Source: an uncultured Bacilli bacterium
GTDB lineage: Bacteria > Bacillota_I > Bacilli_A > RF39 > UBA660
Length of the DNA stretch: 32,000 nt
Assembly (NCBI GenBank): GCA_934085825.1
Contig: CAKOHR010000007.1
Location: 47,013-79,012 of the forward strand
Direction: 5' to 3'
Part shown: piece after piece, positions 11,386 to 32,000 of the stretch
How positions within the stretch are numbered: position 1 is the stretch's first letter
Layout of the letters: every line of letters begins with the position of its first letter
Position numbers and translations under genes: made by a program
The notes under the pieces: generated by a model
Databases searched by the model: none
What the model was told of the DNA's origin: nothing
What the model saw: the letters and a program-made list of their open reading frames with translations, nothing else

Positions 11386-11415
11386 GTTACTAGTATTTAC
11401 TAGTGGCTTTTTTTT
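11386..11415 (+). terminator. Rho-independent terminator
   Basis: GTTACTAGT / ACTAGTGGC stem (two G-U pairs) followed by T8. Confidence 0.7.
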
Positions 11416-11546
11416 GATGTAAAATGCTTATATACTAGAGAAAATATCCAGTGTGATATTGTTATGTATGGAGGATATGAAAAAGAAAATATTGATTTTA
11501 TCAGCTTTTATTTTATTACTTGGAGTTGTAATTATATATCATAATT
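11414..11546 (+). repeat. Leader plus signal-anchor repeat, copy 1
   Basis: Shares ttgatg-aaaat-gct-atata-agag-aatatccagtgtgatattgttat-atgg-gg-a-atgaaaaagaaaatattgattttatc with 19580..19714. Contains the palindrome AATATC-CAGTGT-GATATT at 11443..11460. Confidence 0.75.
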
Positions 11547-11662
11547 AAAGTAAGGATAATGTATTAGAGGATATTAAATCTAAAGTTATAAAAAATGAAA
11601 ATACATTATCTATGATGCTAGAAACTGAAGCTGGTTCTGGAAATTATGATAAATTAAGTTAA
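11477..11662 (+). pseudogene. Truncated 5' remnant of a DGR-target-family surface protein gene (in-frame stop at 11546..11548)
   Basis: MKKKILILSAFILLLGVVIIYHN*SKDNVLEDIKSKVIKNENTLSMMLETEAGSGNYDKLS* aligns with the N-terminus of target 1 (MKRKKVIILSSFTIILLVFVIILYSS...SVSMMLETKAGSGNYEVS). Only ~60 codons remain. Confidence 0.65.
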
Positions 11663-19560: not shown

Positions 19561-19582
19561 AAGTCAAAAAGTGACTTTTTTG
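19561..19582 (+). terminator. Rho-independent terminator
   Basis: AAGTCA / TGACTT stem followed by T6. Confidence 0.65.
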
Positions 19583-19714
19583 ATGCAAAATAGCTATATA
19601 ATAGAGTGAATATCCAGTGTGATATTGTTATAAATGGTGGTTACATGAAAAAGAAAATATTGATTTTATCGGCATTTGCTTTAATTATTGGAGTAATAAT
19701 ATTATATAAAAATT
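19580..19714 (+). repeat. Leader plus signal-anchor repeat, copy 2
   Basis: See copy 1. The palindrome lies at 19609..19626. Confidence 0.75.
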
Positions 19715-19779
19715 ATAGTAAAAATGATGAAGCCAAAGTTGTGAATAACAGAAAACACTTATTATTTGGAATACTATAA
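19645..19779 (+). pseudogene. 44-codon ORF, second 5' remnant of the DGR-target-family gene (signal anchor only)
   Basis: MKKKILILSAFALIIGVIILYKNYSKNDEAKVVNNRKHLLFGIL*. The first ~25 codons and ~65 nt of upstream leader are near-identical to the remnant at 11414..11546. Confidence 0.45.
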
Positions 19780-24680: not shown

Positions 24681-24710
24681 TTTCATATTTTTACGAAACT
24701 ATTTTTTCTT
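24674..24710. terminator. Bidirectional terminator between the SDR and XRE genes
   Basis: AAAATAGTTTC (24674..24684) / GAAACTATTTT (24695..24705), with A and T runs on both sides. Confidence 0.65.
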
Positions 24711-24963
24711 TTTCTTCTTTAGTAACTAAAGCATCTAATGGTACATCAAGTGCTTTTGTTATACTATATAATGTTTCTACAGAAAAATTATATGCAACTT
24801 TTTCGCTTTGGATTTGTTTTATAAAATCGTGTGATAAATCAACCATTTCTGCAAGCTGTGCAGATGTTATTCCTTTCTTTAGTCTGTATTTTCTGATATT
24901 CTTTCGGATTGTATTATAAATATCAGTATCAAAATCAATTTCTTTATTCCGCATAGTTTTCAC
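24691..24963 (-). CDS. XRE family helix-turn-helix transcriptional regulator
   Basis: YRLKKGITSAQLAEMVDLSHDFIKQIQS is a typical HTH_3. GGTGA RBS. It sits only 19 nt downstream of the transposase stop on the same strand. Confidence 0.8.
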   Translation of the reverse strand: MKTMRNKEIDFDTDIYNTIRKNIRKYRLKKGITSAQLAEMVDLSHDFIKQIQSEKVAYNFSVETLYSITKALDVPLDALVTKEEKEKIVS

Positions 24964-26440
24964 CTACATATATTGTAATATTTTACCAAATATCTATACA
25001 GGATGAAATTATAAAGCATGCTAATTCGGTAAAATATTCTTCAATATTTCTTCCTAAATGTTTTCTAATTCTAATTAAACTACGATTATATTTAGGTTTG
25101 GTTTTTTCTAATATAGCTAAAACAAATTTATGTATTATTTCTAAGTTTAATAGGGCATTCTTATTTGCTGTCTTATTTCTATCTTGATTAAAAGTATAAT
25201 CTAAATGCCAATGTATTTTATTTTCTACTGACCAATGACTTCTTATTATTTTACTAAATCTTTTTACATCTACATTTAAACTTGAGATATGATATCTTTC
25301 TTCTATAATTGTAATATCTTTTTCTATTTTTTTCTTTTTTGTATTTTTTCTTTCATTATTTATTTTAGCAATTATTGTTATTGTTTTTCTAACAAGACCA
25401 ATTGATTGTAAGCCTTCCCAAGAATGTGTTCTATCATACCATTCTATATCTGATGTTTGAAAGTATTCATATTTAATTATTTGCCCATGGCTTTTTTCAA
25501 AATATATTTCATATTCAGATTTTGAATTATCAGCAATTATTTCATCACATTTATCTTGATTAAAATATTCTTTTAAGTTATTTTTTAGATCTTCTTGATT
25601 TCCTTTTATTGAAAAAACATAATCAGCATGTGCATCTATAACCGCTTTTACATTTTCTTTTTGAGTATTTAAAACATTAACTGTTATTATTTTACCTTTA
25701 AAATTTTTATCTTTTAAATATTCTCTTATGGTTGGTATTTTATTTGTTTTACTATTTATTGGAATTGTATTTATATAATAATTTTTAGCAAAAGAATAAA
25801 CATTTAGACAATTTAATGGCTTAATTGCTTCATTAATAACTGTCTTTTTTCTTTTACTTCCATTGTTTAATCTTCCATCTAAATTCAATATATCATCTTC
25901 ATTTGATGTATTTAATGTAATAGCATCAAAAAATCTAGAAGAATTTAGTACTTCATGATCTACTAATCCGATTATTCTTTCATAAGAATCTGCTTTAGGC
26001 ACGCCACCAGTCATTTGTAAAAAGCTTTTAAACCATTTGTAGTTTTCTTCAACAAATTCTTGAATTTCTTCCCATGTGTCGTTATTGGCAAAAGAAGCAA
26101 TTATTACACACATAATAACATCCCATAATTTAAAACTTATCATATTTTTATTTCGAATATCTTTAATTTCTTTAAGTTTTTCTTTAAGATTTTTAAGTAA
26201 AGCAATATCAATATCTTGAAATTTTGTTATATTTAATACTTTTTTAATATATTTTATTTCCAATTTAGTTAATTCATCATATTTTTTCTTTGGTTTAGCC
26301 ATTAATATCGTTCCAATCTACTATAATAATCATATCATAGCATGGCGGTTTTCCCAAGAAAAAATTGTTTAAACCTAGATTTTATCTAAGTTTCCTTTAT
26401 GTATTTTTTTTAACTATAATTTTATCCTGCAAATTTATAT
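24964..26440 (-). mobile_element. ISAs1-family insertion sequence, boundaries not resolved
   Basis: Single transposase ORF. I could not identify terminal inverted repeats or target-site duplications by eye, so the coordinates are approximate. Confidence 0.4.
24983..26302 (-). CDS. ISAs1 family transposase
   Basis: The N-terminal DDE_Tnp_1-associated pattern is present (LWDVIMCVIIASFANNDTWEEIQEFVEENYKWFKSFLQMTGGVPKADSYERIIGLVD). The C-terminus IRSHWSVENKIHWHLDYTFNQDRNKTANKNALLNLEIIHKFVLAIL matches the ISAs1 IRxHWxIENxLHWxLDVxFxED signature. Confidence 0.85.
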   Translation of the reverse strand: MAKPKKKYDELTKLEIKYIKKVLNITKFQDIDIALLKNLKEKLKEIKDIRNKNMISFKLWDVIMCVIIASFANNDTWEEIQEFVEENYKWFKSFLQMTGGVPKADSYERIIGLVDHEVLNSSRFFDAITLNTSNEDDILNLDGRLNNGSKRKKTVINEAIKPLNCLNVYSFAKNYYINTIPINSKTNKIPTIREYLKDKNFKGKIITVNVLNTQKENVKAVIDAHADYVFSIKGNQEDLKNNLKEYFNQDKCDEIIADNSKSEYEIYFEKSHGQIIKYEYFQTSDIEWYDRTHSWEGLQSIGLVRKTITIIAKINNERKNTKKKKIEKDITIIEERYHISSLNVDVKRFSKIIRSHWSVENKIHWHLDYTFNQDRNKTANKNALLNLEIIHKFVLAILEKTKPKYNRSLIRIRKHLGRNIEEYFTELACFIISSCIDIW

Positions 26441-26498: not shown

Positions 26499-28301
26499 AT
26501 GAAGAGAAAAAAAGTAATTATTTTAAGCAGTTTTACTATAATTTTACTTGTTTTTGTTATTATTTTATATAGTAGTAAATATAAAAAACAAGTTTATAGT
26601 GAAAATGAAAATAATGAAATAAGGGCTGGAGCATCAGTAAGTATGATGCTTGAAACAAAAGCTGGTTCAGGTAACTATGAGGTATCAACAAGTAGTGAGT
26701 GGCCAACAGATGGTTATATGTTTAATGCTAACTTATCAAAATGTGAAAATGGTGGAACTCTTTCATGGAATGATGAAACAAAATCAGTTGTACTTACTAC
26801 AGGTGTAAGTGACAAGTGTTATGTATATTTTGATATTGTTCCTCCAGATGTTAGTATAGCTGCCAGTAATATACCAACAACTTATGGAAAATTAGGAACA
26901 ATAAGCTGTTCAAATAGTAGTGCAACTTACAACCAACAGTATAATAGAATTGAAGTATCAAATATTAATACTAAATATGAAAATTGCACATTAAATTATA
27001 CTGACAGTACATCAAAAGTAAATTTAGCGTCATATATCACAGGCTTAGCAGGAACAGCTCAAGGGACAGGACAAGTAGTAAATGAAACAGCAACAAGTGA
27101 TAACTCAACTTTTACAGCTGGTGCTAAATTGGAACAAAGTGGTTATACAGTTTCAAGTAATGATGCAACTTATCCATTTGAATGGGATAATACAAATAAA
27201 ACATGGACAAGTACAAATCATACTGATAGTGCTACAGCAACATTTATATTTAATGTAGCTGCAGCAGGTAATTATCAAGTTTGCTATAAGCAATCAAGTG
27301 AAGAAAGCTATGATTACACAATATTTTACAAAGATAATACACAAATAAAATCTTTAAAAGGTATATCTAATAGTGATTTTGCATGTTATTATTTAGGAAA
27401 TTTAACTACTTCAAATGCTATAAAAGTTACTTATCAAAAAGATCGTAGTACATCAGTTGGTTCAGATAATGTAGTATTTTATTTACAAAGTGGTACTTAT
27501 AACGAAAATATACAAACTGTTAGTGCAGGTACAAGATATGAAGGAAAAAATCCAAATAACTATGTGTGGTTCAATAATGAATATTGGAGAATAATCGGAG
27601 TGTTTGATAGTGGCTCTCATGGACAAAGTGGGAAAAACTTGGTAAAAATAATAAGAGCGGATGTGTTAGATGGACTTGCATGGCATAAGTCAGATACAAA
27701 TGATTGGACAGCGGCGAGTTTGAATAAACTACTTAATGGCGCTTACTATAATGCTCAAGATGGAACCGGCTCAGGCTATTGCTATGGAAGTGGTTCAGCT
27801 ACGGCTAATTGTGATTATACTAAAAAAGGAATACAAGCTGGTTATAGAAGTATGATAGCAAATGTAACATGGTATTTAGGTGGATATTCAAGTGATAGTG
27901 CAACAACCGAAAGTTTTTATGGATACGAAAGAGGAACAACAGTGTATAGTGGAAGACCAACAAGTACAACAGGATATATAGGACTAATGTATGTAAGTGA
28001 TTATGGATATAGTGTGTTATCAAGTAGTTGTGCAAGAACAACAAATTTAAGTTCTTATAGTAGTAGCGTATGTGCAGGGCAAAGTTGGCTGTATGGAAAA
28101 GGAGATGAATGGACACTTACGCCTGATTCTTCATACAGCGGCAGTGTGTTCCGTCTTGCCTGCATCGGCGGCGTGTACAGCGACAGCGTGAGCAACGCGT
28201 ATACTGGGTATGGCGTCCGTCCAGTCTTGTATCTAGACGCTTCTGTGTATAAAATAGATGGAGAAGGAACCTTAGATAAGCCATATATCATAGGGATGTG
28301 A
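26499..28301 (+). CDS. DGR target protein 1: signal-anchored surface protein with a C-terminal variable domain (DUF1566/C-type-lectin-like by inference)
   Basis: The N-terminal anchor is MKRKKVIILSSFTIILLVFVIILY. The C-terminal EWTLTPDSSYSGSVFRLACIGGVYSDSVSNAYTGYGVRPVLYLD contains the VR. The ORF is a paralog of the ORF at 30699 and of the C-terminus of 3506..5653. Confidence 0.85.
   Translation: MKRKKVIILSSFTIILLVFVIILYSSKYKKQVYSENENNEIRAGASVSMMLETKAGSGNYEVSTSSEWPTDGYMFNANLSKCENGGTLSWNDETKSVVLTTGVSDKCYVYFDIVPPDVSIAASNIPTTYGKLGTISCSNSSATYNQQYNRIEVSNINTKYENCTLNYTDSTSKVNLASYITGLAGTAQGTGQVVNETATSDNSTFTAGAKLEQSGYTVSSNDATYPFEWDNTNKTWTSTNHTDSATATFIFNVAAAGNYQVCYKQSSEESYDYTIFYKDNTQIKSLKGISNSDFACYYLGNLTTSNAIKVTYQKDRSTSVGSDNVVFYLQSGTYNENIQTVSAGTRYEGKNPNNYVWFNNEYWRIIGVFDSGSHGQSGKNLVKIIRADVLDGLAWHKSDTNDWTAASLNKLLNGAYYNAQDGTGSGYCYGSGSATANCDYTKKGIQAGYRSMIANVTWYLGGYSSDSATTESFYGYERGTTVYSGRPTSTTGYIGLMYVSDYGYSVLSSSCARTTNLSSYSSSVCAGQSWLYGKGDEWTLTPDSSYSGSVFRLACIGGVYSDSVSNAYTGYGVRPVLYLDASVYKIDGEGTLDKPYIIGM
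27044..28022 (+). repeat. Direct repeat copy A (~980 bp) within target 1
   Basis: About 90% identity by eye to 31023..32000, including runs of over 90 identical nt (for example tgatgcaacttatccatttgaatgggataatacaaataaaacatggacaagtacaaatcatactgatagtgctacagcaacatttatatt). Confidence 0.85.
28121..28215 (+). repeat. DGR variable region VR1
   Basis: A ~95-nt, ~60% GC island in an AT-rich gene. It aligns to the TR at 30216..30301 with differences concentrated at TR adenines (details in findings). Confidence 0.75.
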
Positions 28302-28314
28302 GAACTTTGGTTTA

Positions 28315-28344
28315 GCGTGGCTGGCGGGAGTATCCGCCTCACGC
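28315..28344 (+). promoter_or_regulatory. GC-rich stem-loop downstream of VR1 (candidate DGR target-recognition hairpin)
   Basis: GCGTG-GCT-GGCGG-GAGTAT-CCGCC-T-CACGC is a two-tier stem with no T-run after it. It begins 14 nt after the target 1 stop. Confidence 0.55.
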
Positions 28345-28400: not shown

Positions 28401-28808
28401 TTGTACCAGAGGGTGCCGGAAGAACCCCAAAAATATGTAATCATTAATCAATCAAGTGGTAAATTTTTTGAAGTTTATGACTATGATGCTTTTATATTTA
28501 ATTATCTTTTTGATTATAAAATAGTACAAGCAGGAAAAACATACAAATGTGGTTTTCCTGATAGTTCATTAGTAAAAATAACTGATAAACTAAATGATTT
28601 AAAAATATCTTATCAAGTTATATATCGAGGAAAAAATCCACATGTAAAAGATTATAAAAAAATAAATCAATATTCTAAATATAAATTGATAGCTTTACAA
28701 AAAATCGACATAAAAGAGAGAATTGATACTTTAATAGAAAAAATTAAATTATTAGATAACGAAAAAGCTAAAGAAATCATGGAGAAAATTGAAAAATGTT
28801 TAGAATAA
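28401..28808 (+). CDS. MutS-domain-I-like small protein (MSL-type DGR accessory ORF)
   Basis: YVIINQSSGKFFEVYDYDAFIFNYLFDYKI...KCGFPDSSLVKITDKLNDLKISYQVI parallels MutS domain I ([29 protein letters not shown]...[25 protein letters not shown], E. coli sequence from memory). This includes the Phe-x-Glu motif. There is a coiled-coil-like K/E-rich tail. The start is uncertain: TTG 28401 or GTG 28413, with no good RBS for either. Confidence 0.65.
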   Translation: MYQRVPEEPQKYVIINQSSGKFFEVYDYDAFIFNYLFDYKIVQAGKTYKCGFPDSSLVKITDKLNDLKISYQVIYRGKNPHVKDYKKINQYSKYKLIALQKIDIKERIDTLIEKIKLLDNEKAKEIMEKIEKCLE

Positions 28809-29155
28809 ATAATAATGACTTTAAAATACTTCAAAAATACAAAATGTTTCTAATGAATTTAGACAATTCATTAAAAAATATACCAAGAAAAGATATGTAT
28901 TTTAAAGATAGAATTAAAAATATATCACTAGATGTATTAAAAAATATTTTATTATGTTTTTATGATACTAGTTCTGTAAGTTTATACAGAACTAGTATCA
29001 AAGCTAATATTGCTTTACTTGATTTTATGTTAGAAAGATTGTTGTTAAAAAAATATATAAGCGAGAAAAACTTATATAAACTTGCAACCGATTTAGTGGA
29101 AATAAATAAAATGGTTACTGGATGGCTTAATAATCATGAAAGTAAATTTATTTGA
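28796..29155 (+). CDS. avd: Accessory variability determinant (Avd), four-helix-bundle family
   Basis: 119 aa, directly upstream of and overlapping the RT. NSLKNIPRKDMYFKDRI resembles the IPRKHG region of Bordetella phage bAvd (from memory). Predicted to be helical throughout. Confidence 0.75.
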   Translation: MFRINNNDFKILQKYKMFLMNLDNSLKNIPRKDMYFKDRIKNISLDVLKNILLCFYDTSSVSLYRTSIKANIALLDFMLERLLLKKYISEKNLYKLATDLVEINKMVTGWLNNHESKFI

Positions 29156-30197
29156 TTTATTAGACATTTATGAAAGTGAAGTAAAGAAAAATGTTAGAAA
29201 CAAAAAGAAAATATTGGATTTTGAAAAACATAAAATGGAATATCTTGTTGATATAAAAAGAGTATTAGAAAATAATCTATATGATGGAGGAAAGTATAAT
29301 ATATTTTTAGTATTTGAACCTAAGATAAGAGTAATAATGGCCCAAGGTATATATGACAAAATAATAAATCATTATGTAACTAGGCACATTTTAATGCCAA
29401 AGCTAGAAAAATATCTAGAAAGTAGAAATTGTGCTACTAGAAAAGAAATGGGAACAAGTTATGCAATTAAACTATTAAAAAAAGATATTGAAAGTTTCAA
29501 AAAATATAATAAATTCTATTTTTTGAAACTAGATATAAGTAAATATTTTTACAATTTAGACCATGAATTAATTATTTCTATTGTTAAATACGATTTAAAC
29601 CCTGATGAATTAAATCTTGTTAAAATAATACTTGAAAGTACTAATAAAGAGTACATAAATAAAAAGATAAAGTATTTAGAAAATAAATATAATGTTGAAT
29701 TACCAAAGTATGAACATGGTAAGGGTTTAGCAATAGGTAATTTATCTAGTCAATTTCTAGCAATACTGTATTTAAACAAATTACAGCATTATATTACTAA
29801 TAATTTACATATTAAATTTATTAATTATATGGATGATTATATTTTAATTCATAATTCTAAGGAATATCTAAAAAGTTCTTTAGAATTGATTGAAAATATA
29901 ATTAATAATGAATATAAATTAAAATTAAATAGTAAGAAAACAATTATTAGTAATTGTAATCAAGGAATATCATTCCTAGGTTATACATTTAAAGTTAAAA
30001 ATAATAAAACAATTGTAAAACTAAATACTAACACTAAAAAGAATATTAGAAAAGGTATAAAAAGAGCAAATTATTTATATAAAAATAATTTAATAAAATT
30101 TAATCAATACTTTTCAAGTATTGAATGTTTTAAAAATAATTATATTTTTGTTAATAAAGATAAAGTAAAACACTTTATTGATAGATATGATGGGTAA
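29136..30197 (+). CDS. DGR-type reverse transcriptase
   Basis: RT motifs are present: RVIMAQGIYDKIINHYV, NCATRKEMGTSYA, FLKLDISKYFYNLDH, GLAIGNLSSQFLAILYLN (the DGR-specific SQ motif 4), NYMDDYILIH (YMDD), LKLNSKKT and ISFLGYTF. The protein is 353 aa with no maturase or endonuclease domains. Confidence 0.9.
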   Translation: MKVNLFDLLDIYESEVKKNVRNKKKILDFEKHKMEYLVDIKRVLENNLYDGGKYNIFLVFEPKIRVIMAQGIYDKIINHYVTRHILMPKLEKYLESRNCATRKEMGTSYAIKLLKKDIESFKKYNKFYFLKLDISKYFYNLDHELIISIVKYDLNPDELNLVKIILESTNKEYINKKIKYLENKYNVELPKYEHGKGLAIGNLSSQFLAILYLNKLQHYITNNLHIKFINYMDDYILIHNSKEYLKSSLELIENIINNEYKLKLNSKKTIISNCNQGISFLGYTFKVKNNKTIVKLNTNTKKNIRKGIKRANYLYKNNLIKFNQYFSSIECFKNNYIFVNKDKVKHFIDRYDG

Positions 30198-30215
30198 TTC
30201 TTAAGTAAAAAAGAT

Positions 30216-30301
30216 GCCTAATTCTTCGAACAGCAACAATGTGTTCAATGAAAGCAACAACGGTAATACAAGCAACAACAACGCGAATAATGGGAATGGC
30301 G
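30216..30301 (+). repeat. DGR template repeat (TR)
   Basis: Non-coding 86-nt tract starting 18 nt after the RT stop. It has 35 A of 86 nt by hand count. In the VR reading frame 14 of 27 codon-equivalents are AAC or AAT. The flanks match VR1. Confidence 0.8.
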
Positions 30302-30407
30302 GCTTCTGAGCTCATTATGTTAAATGTTTATTATTCTAAGGAATGTAAAAGGGCATAAAGAACATGAATTATCCAAAGGATAAAATCCTTAAAAAGAAAA
30401 TAGATAC

Positions 30408-30429
30408 GGAAAAGTCCAAGGACTTTTCC
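30408..30429 (+). other. Perfect 10-bp hairpin in the TR-downstream non-coding region
   Basis: GGAAAAGTCC-AA-GGACTTTTCC with no T-run after it. It is preceded by a second small stem AAGGAT-AAA-ATCCTT (30376..30390). Confidence 0.5.
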
Positions 30430-30456
30430 TATGGGTCTATTATATTAATTTGATTT

Positions 30457-30720
30457 ATGAAAGAAAGATATTTAATAATTAAAAAGTTATATAAAGATTA
30501 TATAATTTTAATAAAAGATAAAAATAATAATTACATTTCTTTTGAAGAAGATGCTAAAATAGTAAAATATTTTGGTATTAAAGAAGTAAATACAATTTAT
30601 CTAAATAATTTAGAAATAGAAGAAATAAATTGTTATAAAAATAATAAATATAATGAATTATATTTGAAAGTAAAATTAATAGAATTGTTGGAGGTCTTAT
30701 GCAAAAGAGAATTAAAATAG
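30457..30720 (+). CDS. Second MutS-domain-I-like small ORF (N-terminal subdomain only)
   Basis: ERYLIIKKLYKDYIILIKDKNNNYISFEEDAKIVKYFGI parallels MutS [39 protein letters not shown]. The Phe-x-Glu motif is not conserved and no clear RBS is present. It overlaps the target 2 start. Confidence 0.45.
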   Translation: MKERYLIIKKLYKDYIILIKDKNNNYISFEEDAKIVKYFGIKEVNTIYLNNLEIEEINCYKNNKYNELYLKVKLIELLEVLCKRELK

Positions 30721-32000
30721 TAAGTGTAGGAATTATATTGATAGTATTATTCATTAGTATTATTGCTCTAAATAATAATACTAATAATAAACATACATTT
30801 AAAAAAGATGGAATATTATATGCTTTATCTTTAGATGGAAAAAGTATAACATCTTTTCCATCTAAAGGATTATATAAAGCAAATGTATCATGTGATGGTG
30901 CAGATGGAAAATGGTTATATGATGATTGGAAATTATCAATCGAAAATATAACTGGTGATGTATCATGTGATATTAAGTTTGAAACAATTACAAAAACATA
31001 CTTTAATGATTATATTACAAAATTAGCAGGAACAACACAAGGAACAGGGAAAGTGATAAATGAAACTGCATCAAAAGATAATTCAACATTTACAGCAGGT
31101 GCAAAATTGGAACAAAGTGGTTATACAGTTTCAAGTAATGATGCAACTTATCCATTTGAATGGGATAATACAAATAAAACATGGACAAGTACAAATCATA
31201 CTGATAGTGCTACAGCAACATTTATATTCAATGTATCTGCAGCAGGTAATTATCAAGTTTGCTATAAACAATCAAGTGAAAAAAACTTTGATTACACAAT
31301 ATTTTACAAAGATAATACACAAATAAAATCTTTAAAAGGTATATCTAATACTGATTTTGAGTGTTATTATTTAGGAAGTTTAACTACTTCAAATGCGATA
31401 AAGGTTACTTATCGAAAAGATAGTAGTGGCTCAAATGGCTCTGATAACGTAGTATTTTATCTACAAAGTGTTACTTATAACGAAAATATACAAACTGTTA
31501 CTGATACAAGATATGAAGGAAAAAATCCAAATAACTATGTGTGGTTCAATAATGAATACTGGAGAATAATCGGAGTGTTTGATAGTAGTTCTCATGGACA
31601 AAGTGGAAAAAACTTGGTAAAAATAATTCGTGCAGATGTGTTAGATGGACTAGCTTGGGATAAGTCATATACAAATGATTGGACAGCGGCGAGTTTGAAT
31701 AAACTACTTAATGGAGCTTACTATAATGCCCAAGATGGAACAAGTTCAGGCTATTGTTACGGATATAGCACAACAGCAACAGCTAATTGTGACTATACAA
31801 AAAAAGGGATACAAGCTGGCTATAGAAGTATGATAGCAAATGTAACATGGTATCTAGGTGGATATTCAAGTAGTGATGCAACCACTGAAGCTTTTTATGG
31901 ATATGAAAGAGGAACAACAGTATCTAGTGGAAGACCAACAACAACTACAGGATATATAGGACTAATGTATCCAAGTGATTATGGATATAGTGTGTTATCA
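30699..32000 (+). CDS. DGR target protein 2 (paralog of target 1), partial; continues beyond window end
   Basis: Not in the ORF track (no stop in window). ATG 30699 has GGAGG 5 nt upstream, and the frame is open for 434 codons to position 32000. It begins MQKRIKIVSVGIILIVLFISIIAL. From ~31023 onward it is near-identical at DNA level to 27044..28022. Its VR would lie about 100-200 nt past the window end. Confidence 0.85.
   Translation, partial: MQKRIKIVSVGIILIVLFISIIALNNNTNNKHTFKKDGILYALSLDGKSITSFPSKGLYKANVSCDGADGKWLYDDWKLSIENITGDVSCDIKFETITKTYFNDYITKLAGTTQGTGKVINETASKDNSTFTAGAKLEQSGYTVSSNDATYPFEWDNTNKTWTSTNHTDSATATFIFNVSAAGNYQVCYKQSSEKNFDYTIFYKDNTQIKSLKGISNTDFECYYLGSLTTSNAIKVTYRKDSSGSNGSDNVVFYLQSVTYNENIQTVTDTRYEGKNPNNYVWFNNEYWRIIGVFDSSSHGQSGKNLVKIIRADVLDGLAWDKSYTNDWTAASLNKLLNGAYYNAQDGTSSGYCYGYSTTATANCDYTKKGIQAGYRSMIANVTWYLGGYSSSDATTEAFYGYERGTTVSSGRPTTTTGYIGLMYPSDYGYSVLS
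31023..32000 (+). repeat. Direct repeat copy B within target 2 (truncated by window end)
   Basis: See copy A. Position 32000 corresponds to 28022. Confidence 0.85.

Follow-up and report, generated by a model that had tools for sequence, protein, structure and literature searches.

Both variable repeats of a two-target diversity-generating retroelement from an uncultured Bacilli bacterium differ from their template repeat in length and at non-adenine positions

Introduction

The prototype of the diversity-generating retroelements (DGRs) is that of BPP-1, with the order mtd-avd-TR-brt. It combines a reverse transcriptase (RT) with Avd, its template repeat (TR) and variable repeat (VR) differ specifically at adenines, the VR lies at the 3′ end of the target open reading frame (ORF), and a GC-rich inverted repeat stands downstream of the target end. 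These traits, with a probable Avd, recur in the element described here, a chromosomal DGR with two targets from an uncultured Bacilli bacterium (RF39; UBA660). The stretch of DNA analyzed, referred to as the window, consists of 32,000 nt (GCA_934085825.1, CAKOHR010000007.1, 47,013-79,012). Its cassette has the order target 1, MutS-like (MSL) ORF, avd, RT, TR, small ORF, and target 2, and both of its repeats, VR1 in target 1 and VR2 in target 2, disagree with the TR. Probably the DGR is quiescent or decaying, and VR1 and VR2 preserve earlier alleles of the TR as fossils.

Departures from the prototype are well documented. In a survey of 372 DGRs, 23% had differences other than A-to-N and 7% had TR and VR of different length; 74% of the indels were adjacent to AAC, and RT slippage was offered as the explanation (Wu et al. 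2018, PMC5758913). The targets of one cassette often differed in pattern, GC-rich inverted repeats were found downstream of the VR in 34% of DGRs, and an MSL accessory class was defined, always together with avd (Wu et al. 2018, PMC5758913). Msl has also been reported in Bacteroides DGRs (Macadangdang et al., preprint 10.1101/2024.11.15.621889).

The window DGR differs from that of BPP-1, which is phage-borne, in several respects. The TR lies downstream of the RT, two paralogous targets flank the cassette, extra MutS-like ORFs are present, TR and VRs are unequal in length, and about 100 nt separate the inverted repeat from the end of the VR. The invariant 3′ homology amounts to about 5 nt (TGGCG), as against the 34-bp initiation of mutagenic homing (IMH) sequence of BPP-1. 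With the MSL DGRs of Legionella and Bacteroides (Bfr, Bth, and Bun) it shares a small MutS domain I ORF beside avd and RT; unlike them, it resides in a low-GC uncultured Bacilli host, its targets are DUF6273-like rather than lipoproteins or pilins, and a second, shorter, faintly MutS_I-like ORF precedes target 2. In sequence pattern it resembles the “non-canonical” DGRs of Wu et al. 2018, where lengths also differ in frame within AAC runs, several differences lie at sites other than adenine, and two targets are unlike in pattern. These were read as RT slippage, an added mutagenic capability, whereas the window DGR suggests a change on the TR side, with frozen VRs lagging behind. Every single feature of the window DGR is within the variation already described.

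VR1 and Its Own Template

The two repeats compared are as follows.

30216..30301, + strand: TR, 86 nt, with 35 adenines, chiefly in AAC/AAT codons
28121..28215, + strand: VR1, 95 nt, 58.9% GC, exceeding the TR by 9 nt, in the 3′-terminal part of target 1

VR1 ends 86 nt ahead of the target 1 stop codon. Its GC content stands out from that of target 1 outside VR1 (32.4%) and of the window (26.3%); a first-pass annotation made from the letters of the window had put VR1 at about 60%, which agrees, and the rest of target 1 under 30%, which is too low. In the 5′ block of 34 nt (TR 30216-30249 against VR1 28121-28154) there are 8 mismatches, 7 at TR adenines and the eighth a tcG/tcA difference, while in the 3′ block of 22 nt, ending at 30301 and 28215, all 3 mismatches fall on TR adenines. 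These values reproduce to the base the hand counts of the first-pass annotation. When both blocks are pooled (56 positions, 19 of them TR adenines), 10 of the 11 mismatches are at adenines (hypergeometric P = 2.3e-5). Over the whole repeat, aligned with a single in-frame gap of 9 nt, 22 of 35 adenines differ, compared with 7 of 51 non-adenines (Fisher P = 2.8e-6).

Since the mismatches are so strongly adenine-biased, VR1 is a genuine variable repeat, produced by adenine mutagenesis in a DGR. The earlier proposal to this effect is borne out by the enrichment found on formal alignment (P = 2.3e-5 to 2.8e-6) and by the presence of RT, a probable Avd, TR, and two paralogous targets. Indeed, the locus has a non-coding TR beside the RT, a near-repeat VR at the 3′ end of a target, and differences concentrated at adenines. 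The canonical pattern of equal TR and VR length with adenine-only differences, which is a typical and not an obligatory feature, is seen in neither VR1 nor VR2.

The disagreement is concentrated in the center of the repeat. VR1 had been described as three codons longer than the TR, and the 9 nt are recovered: a neutral local alignment distributes them over three gaps (3+1+5). About five central non-adenine differences had also been counted; their number depends on the alignment, being 2 with three gaps and 6 with the single in-frame gap (7 in all minus the tcG site). In total, VR1 shows 3-7 non-adenine mismatches to its own TR, again depending on the alignment.

As previously noticed, homology between TR and VR1 ends at ggcg, beyond which the two agree at 3 of 11 bases. 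The same boundary occurs in the related locus L002 (VR ggcg|TCCGTCCAGTC, TR ggcg|GCTTCTGAGCTC), whose VR is a clean TR copy, so the boundary is normal for this DGR family. An IMH/IMH* pair would be expected at this ggcg end. A candidate for the GC-rich inverted repeat that goes with it is the family-conserved one at 28315-28344, but some 100 nt lie between it and the VR, and it is a possible terminator.

The Second Variable Repeat

Target 2 runs off the end of the window. It was completed on L001, a 367-kb contig from a Hadza gut metagenome, whose RT protein sequence is identical to that of the window and which shows 6 differences over 12,865 shared bases, all outside VR1 and TR. This extension does reveal a TR-like segment in target 2.

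window-equivalent 32099-32190, outside the window: VR2, found on the L001 extension

VR2 exceeds the TR by 6 nt and carries 5 non-adenine and 21 adenine mismatches. The expectation that target 2 would hold a clean cognate of the TR is thus not sustained; VR2 is closer to the TR only in the diagnostic codons GAA AGC. An adenine-tolerant scan of both strands, covering the window and 8 kb downstream (40 kb), detected only the TR at 30216. Both VRs therefore disagree with the only TR in 40 kb, VR1 by 9 additional nt and 7 non-adenine mismatches and VR2 by 6 additional nt and 5, and of the three repeats the TR is the odd one out.

A second DGR acting in trans, or an orphan TR elsewhere in the genome, could in principle template VR1, as remote targets are within the reach of DGRs and about 10% of the genomes that carry a DGR have at least one more (Wu et al. 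2018). The scan took in 40 kb, and the contig extends over 367 kb. Nevertheless, no second TR occurs in the window and its downstream extension, relatives serve both targets with a single local TR, and the invariance of VR1 across strains (see below) argues that nothing diversifies it at present. This origin is considered very improbable.

Related Loci and the Side That Changed

Related loci were collected from genome assemblies (17 loci, nearly all from metagenome-assembled genomes labelled uncultured Bacilli, of human and animal gut) and from gut metagenomes (49 loci). These ~65 loci share the layout target, MSL, avd, RT, TR, small ORF, and target. Most of them possess ungapped TR/VR pairs with 0-2 non-adenine differences (e.g., L002, L004, L021-L024, L027, L029, L031, L032, and L037), and lineages with a common TR allele carry different VRs, as L025 and L066 do. 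Clean pairs, together with differing VRs on a shared TR, indicate that the family does diversify and that the window lineage is the exception.

The fit of each VR to the available TRs was scored under a single-indel model. VR1 matches the TRs of L002, L021, and L022, whose RTs are 94-95% identical to that of the window, with 3 non-adenine mismatches and one gap in the AAC run, compared with 7 non-adenine mismatches to its own TR, which comes 7th of 28 TRs when ranked by mismatch count and 13th of 32 when ranked by score. Where the codons disagree, VR1 has the bases of the relatives' TRs, with CTT in place of the GAA and GGC in place of the GGT of its own TR. VR2, by contrast, fits its own TR best (5 non-adenine mismatches versus at least 8 for other TRs); the diagnostic GAA AGC codons are common to both and read GCG AGC in VR2. 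The ggT site of the TR is ggC in both VRs and in the TRs of the closest relatives (L002 and L021-L024), which points to a change on the TR side. Moreover, the TR is a local peak of divergence: 30201-30320 is 84-92% identical to relatives, whereas the flanks (the RT 3′ end and the downstream non-coding DNA) are 95-100% identical. The fit of VR1 to the relatives' TRs, that of VR2 to its own TR, and this divergence peak together indicate that VR1 was written before the template changed. Among the explanations listed in the first-pass annotation, an older TR version and a retired VR are those favored by the evidence.

Changes of this kind recur in a minority of the ~65 loci, in which the TR has indels in AAC runs. 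L020 and L022 are 98.8% identical over 10 kb and their VRs differ at one adenine site, and the L020 TR is without 18 nt. The L009 TR misses about 30 nt relative to both its VRs. Further discordant loci are L003, L010, L019, L033, L034, L038 (VR1), L028 (VR2), and L047. AAC repeats number five in L022 and four in L021, and the L022 VRs match the length of their five-AAC TR; length changes do get copied into VRs. In this regard, the tolerance of indels that had been listed as a third explanation is also upheld, VR length tracking TR length in relatives such as L022.

The alternative that VR1 and VR2 were copied from the present TR by non-canonical mutagenesis, through RT slippage in AAC repeats, misincorporation, or repair at cDNA integration, has to be weighed against these observations. 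Slippage was proposed for AAC-adjacent length differences by Wu et al. 2018 (PMC5758913), the gaps in the window DGR fall in or beside AAC runs, and in L025, L063, and L066 three independently diversified VRs are each one AAC shorter than the TR. However, VR1 reproduces bases of the relatives' TRs (CTT for GAA and GGC for GGT), unlike random misincorporation, the L020/L022 indel arose in the TR while the VRs were unchanged, and VR variation is zero in the conspecific contigs covering VR1 (9) and VR2 (5). Copying from the present TR is accordingly judged unlikely.

A separate observation concerns L035. In its TR (about 1330-1427) many adenines have been lost, and the sequence reads like a VR (…AACACCAGTGTGTTCTTTCTTACCAGCAACGAC…); this template may have been overwritten or mutagenized.

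Conspecific Strains and Lesions of the RT

VR1 is nucleotide-identical in 9 distinct conspecific contigs from 9 assemblies, VR2 in 5 conspecific contigs, and the TR in all 4 that cover it. Outside these repeats the cassettes do vary, with 3, 44, and 71 differences from the window, or 3 to 69 in another tally. Among 10 contigs target 1 has three protein variants, and among 5 contigs target 2 has five; these diverge by up to 2% outside the VRs and never within them. VR variability among close genomes, the sign of ongoing diversification, is consequently absent in this species and present in relatives that share a TR allele.

29136..30197, + strand: RT, 353 aa, intact in the window strain (RVT_1, E=1.8e-16)

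The motif I/LGxxxSQ is diagnostic of DGR RTs. The window RT has IGNLSSQ at residues 200-206 and YMDD at residue 231, which identifies it as a DGR-type RT. In two conspecific loci from different studies, L068 and L070, a 1-nt deletion shortens the A7 tract at 29477-29483 to A6 and splits the RT into 129 + 224 aa. With A6, the canonical -1 slippery heptamer A AAA AAG falls in the zero frame; a -1 slip, or transcriptional slippage, would restore the exact 353-aa RT, and the downstream 224 codons are otherwise undamaged. Linked to the deletion are 30 single-nucleotide polymorphisms (SNPs) clustered in 29419-29744, which look like a recombination tract. In L068 and L070, clustered SNP tracts with about 9% divergence occur within RT and avd, and they indicate recombination with divergent alleles inside the cassette.

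RT lesions are common among the relatives too, occurring in L002, L003, L004, L010, L024, L035, L038, L042, and L054. The frameshifts of L002 and L004 are near RT codon 42, that of L002 being an extra A in an A-run; L024 has a stop at codon 30 and YMDD changed to YMYD. A simple link between RT lesion and TR/VR discordance was dropped, as L002, L004, and L024 have a broken RT yet clean pairs.

The recombination tracts bear on the possibility that the 3′ end of target 1 or the RT-TR module was imported by homologous recombination or gene conversion, VR1 having been written in another genome by the TR of that genome. Besides the ~9%-divergent SNP clusters in conspecific RT and avd, such an import would agree with target 1 variants P0002 and P0003, which have target-2-like residues at 466-499, with the equality of VR1 and VR2 in many relatives, a concerted evolution of the two targets, and with the best TR fit of VR1, which is of the L002/L021/L022 type. 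On the other hand, no donor with the same VR1 or with a TR longer by 9 nt exists among the ~65 loci, and the immediate flanks of VR1 are not an island of divergence relative to target 2. Import overlaps with the origin from an earlier TR allele instead of contradicting it, the template being a different TR allele in both cases. As an account of its own it is held to be improbable.

A Possible History of the Repeats and Its Limits

The origin of VR1 and VR2 from earlier TR alleles, which we consider probable, would involve the following steps. VR1 would have been written by adenine-mutagenic retrohoming from a TR allele like that of the closest relatives (AAT CTT AAC AAC AAC GGC AAC TTG (AAC)n GCG ...) with a longer AAC run. 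TR codons 12-19 would then have been substituted (CTT>GAA, AAC>AGC, GGC>GGT, AAC>AAT, TTG>ACA, and AAC>AGC) and the length of the AAC tract altered as well; these changes would have arisen in situ or through recombination with another, divergent allele. VR2 would have been written from an intermediate allele that already had GAA AGC, and neither VR would have been rewritten since. The element would now be quiescent or decaying in this species, as suggested by VRs frozen across strains and an RT frameshifted in some of them. We infer the order of these events, as well as the present inactivity in the window strain, where the RT is intact.

Several points weigh against this history. The window strain has kept its RT, Avd, TR adenines, conserved region 3′ of the TR, and target 1 hairpin intact, so that rare or conditional activity is possible. 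Strong purifying selection on two well-adapted VRs could also give invariance. No sampled TR matches VR1 or VR2 perfectly, the ancestral alleles being reconstructions, and the search for a second TR covered 40 kb of the genome. The differences of one AAC in L025, L063, and L066 are equally compatible with RT slippage. Finally, the lesions in clean-pair relatives (L002, L004, and L024) mean that RT status and discordance are not tightly coupled.

It is also conceivable, though distinctly improbable, that DGR activity in this clade is gated by RT homopolymer tracts acting as reversible or leaky switches. Retrohoming would then come in rare bursts, separated by periods in which slippage in the AAC run causes the TR to drift, and each VR would record the TR allele of its own time, VR1 being older than VR2.

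The Region 3′ of the Template

30302..30434, + strand: conserved non-coding region 3′ of the TR, 95-100% identical to relatives, ending in a hairpin at 30408-30429

This region is more conserved than the TR itself and includes the invariant blocks ATGTT and GCAT.AAAGAACATGAATTATCC. The terminal hairpin has a folding energy of -7.3 kcal/mol (z = -4.1), and at least two hairpins covary, by eye only, across 12 loci. RNAalifold on a MAFFT alignment of the TR 3′ flank returned no pairs, the hairpins being out of register there, and an Rfam search of the cassette gave no match. The region probably belongs to the DGR RNA, of which it may be a spacer or the 3′, priming part.

Accessory ORFs

28413..28808, + strand: MSL accessory ORF, 131 aa (135 aa from TTG at 28401), Pfam MutS_I; the gene is also called in L001
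28796..29155, + strand: Avd-type accessory gene, 119 aa (Pfam bAvd, E=2.5e-6, 28.3 bits, under the cutoff of 40)
30457..30720, + strand: small ORF, 87 aa, between TR and target 2, overlapping the target 2 start

The MSL ORF matches Pfam MutS_I with E=2.1e-4 and 21.9 bits in the 135-aa reading (cutoff 20.6) and with 19.4 bits in the 131-aa reading. Its small size (the range of the class is 112-283 aa), its similarity to MutS domain I, and the adjacent avd place it in the MSL class. The bAvd match of the next gene is below the cutoff, and its size of 119 aa and position directly upstream of the RT agree with Avd. The 87-aa ORF, found at the same position in L001 and in L068-L069, has a faint, sub-threshold MutS_I match over its first 37 residues (E=0.038). 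BLASTP detected no similarity between it and the first MSL ORF, which does not support a paralogous relationship of the two.

Target Genes and Their Hairpins

26499..28301, + strand: target gene 1, 600 aa (ORF list), with a hydrophobic N-terminal segment and a C-terminal variable domain weakly similar to DUF6273
28315..28344, + strand: GC-rich inverted repeat (6-bp outer stem, 2-nt bulge, and 6-bp inner stem), just past the target 1 stop codon
30700..32000, + strand: 5′ part of target gene 2; the full gene encodes 525 aa (L001 11564-13141) and ends at window-equivalent 32276

The two targets are paralogues, with 90-93% identity in shared blocks. Target 1 has no Pfam match at E<=0.01; its DUF6273 match is weak (E=0.033) and spans the VR end, and 9 of 31 relatives match this family at E<=0.01. 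The variable residues of a DGR are expected to be displayed on a C-type-lectin-like (or Ig-like) fold. PDB sequence and profile searches with the target gave no match, and an AlphaFold2 model on a 31-sequence alignment was unusable (mean pLDDT 32.8). An insertion of about 147 aa (FTAGAKLEQSGYTVSS…) is present in both targets (window 27088-27533 and 31066-31508); it is missing in most relatives (L002, L004, L010, and L022) and found in L023.

In L004, L007, L011, L020, L022-L025, and L033 both targets of a cassette have the same VR, and the 3′ ends of the two agree at 99% over about 850 nt, which points to probable gene conversion between the paralogues. VR1 and VR2 of the window are not alike, unlike those of the gene-converted relatives.

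The inverted repeat begins about 100 nt 3′ of VR1 and has a DNA folding energy of -10.7 kcal/mol (z = -2.2). A counterpart GC-rich hairpin of different sequence directly follows the stop codon of nearly every target gene in relatives, where the stems vary by sub-clade: GCGTGG..GGCGG/CCGCC..CCACGC, CTCCG..GGCGG/CCGCC.CGGAG, and GGCCACGGCGG/CCGCCGTGGTC. After target 2 (L001 13159-13193) the canonical 3′ inner arm has been lost, and another, weaker fold with a 16-nt loop is present. The target-gene hairpin may be a homing cruciform or a terminator.

Genomic Setting

The neighbors of the cassette are housekeeping genes (Tex, UvrB, Mur ligase, and DHH phosphoesterase), and a search of viral contigs for relatives of the DGR found none. 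A phage origin was rejected on these two grounds. The gene order around the cassette is not the same in relatives. Directly upstream of target 1, an insertion sequence-type transposase (DDE_Tnp_1_assoc) and an HTH_3/HTH_19 regulator lie on the - strand at 24691-26302. Farther away, a direct repeat of about 150 nt (11410-11561 and 19576-19729, about 80% identical) holds a short ORF (MKKKILILSAF…), and its first copy is followed at 11477-11650 by a fragment like the target 1 N-terminus (…SMMLETEAGSGNYD…). The direct repeats and this fragment look like remnants of target-like genes.

Implications

The known mechanism of DGRs is unchanged by these findings. What is new is modest: in this DGR family, evolution of the template accounts for the discordance between TR and VR better than sloppy reverse transcription does. 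An imperfect TR/VR pair is not automatically the product of sloppy reverse transcription, because the template itself mutates, mainly by indels in AAC runs, and the VRs stay as fossils. This bears on how surveys score DGR activity and “non-canonical mutagenesis”, and ungapped TR/VR detectors miss such elements. Beyond the single locus, a widespread family of two-target MSL DGRs is documented in uncultured low-GC gut Bacilli, in which active and decaying versions coexist.

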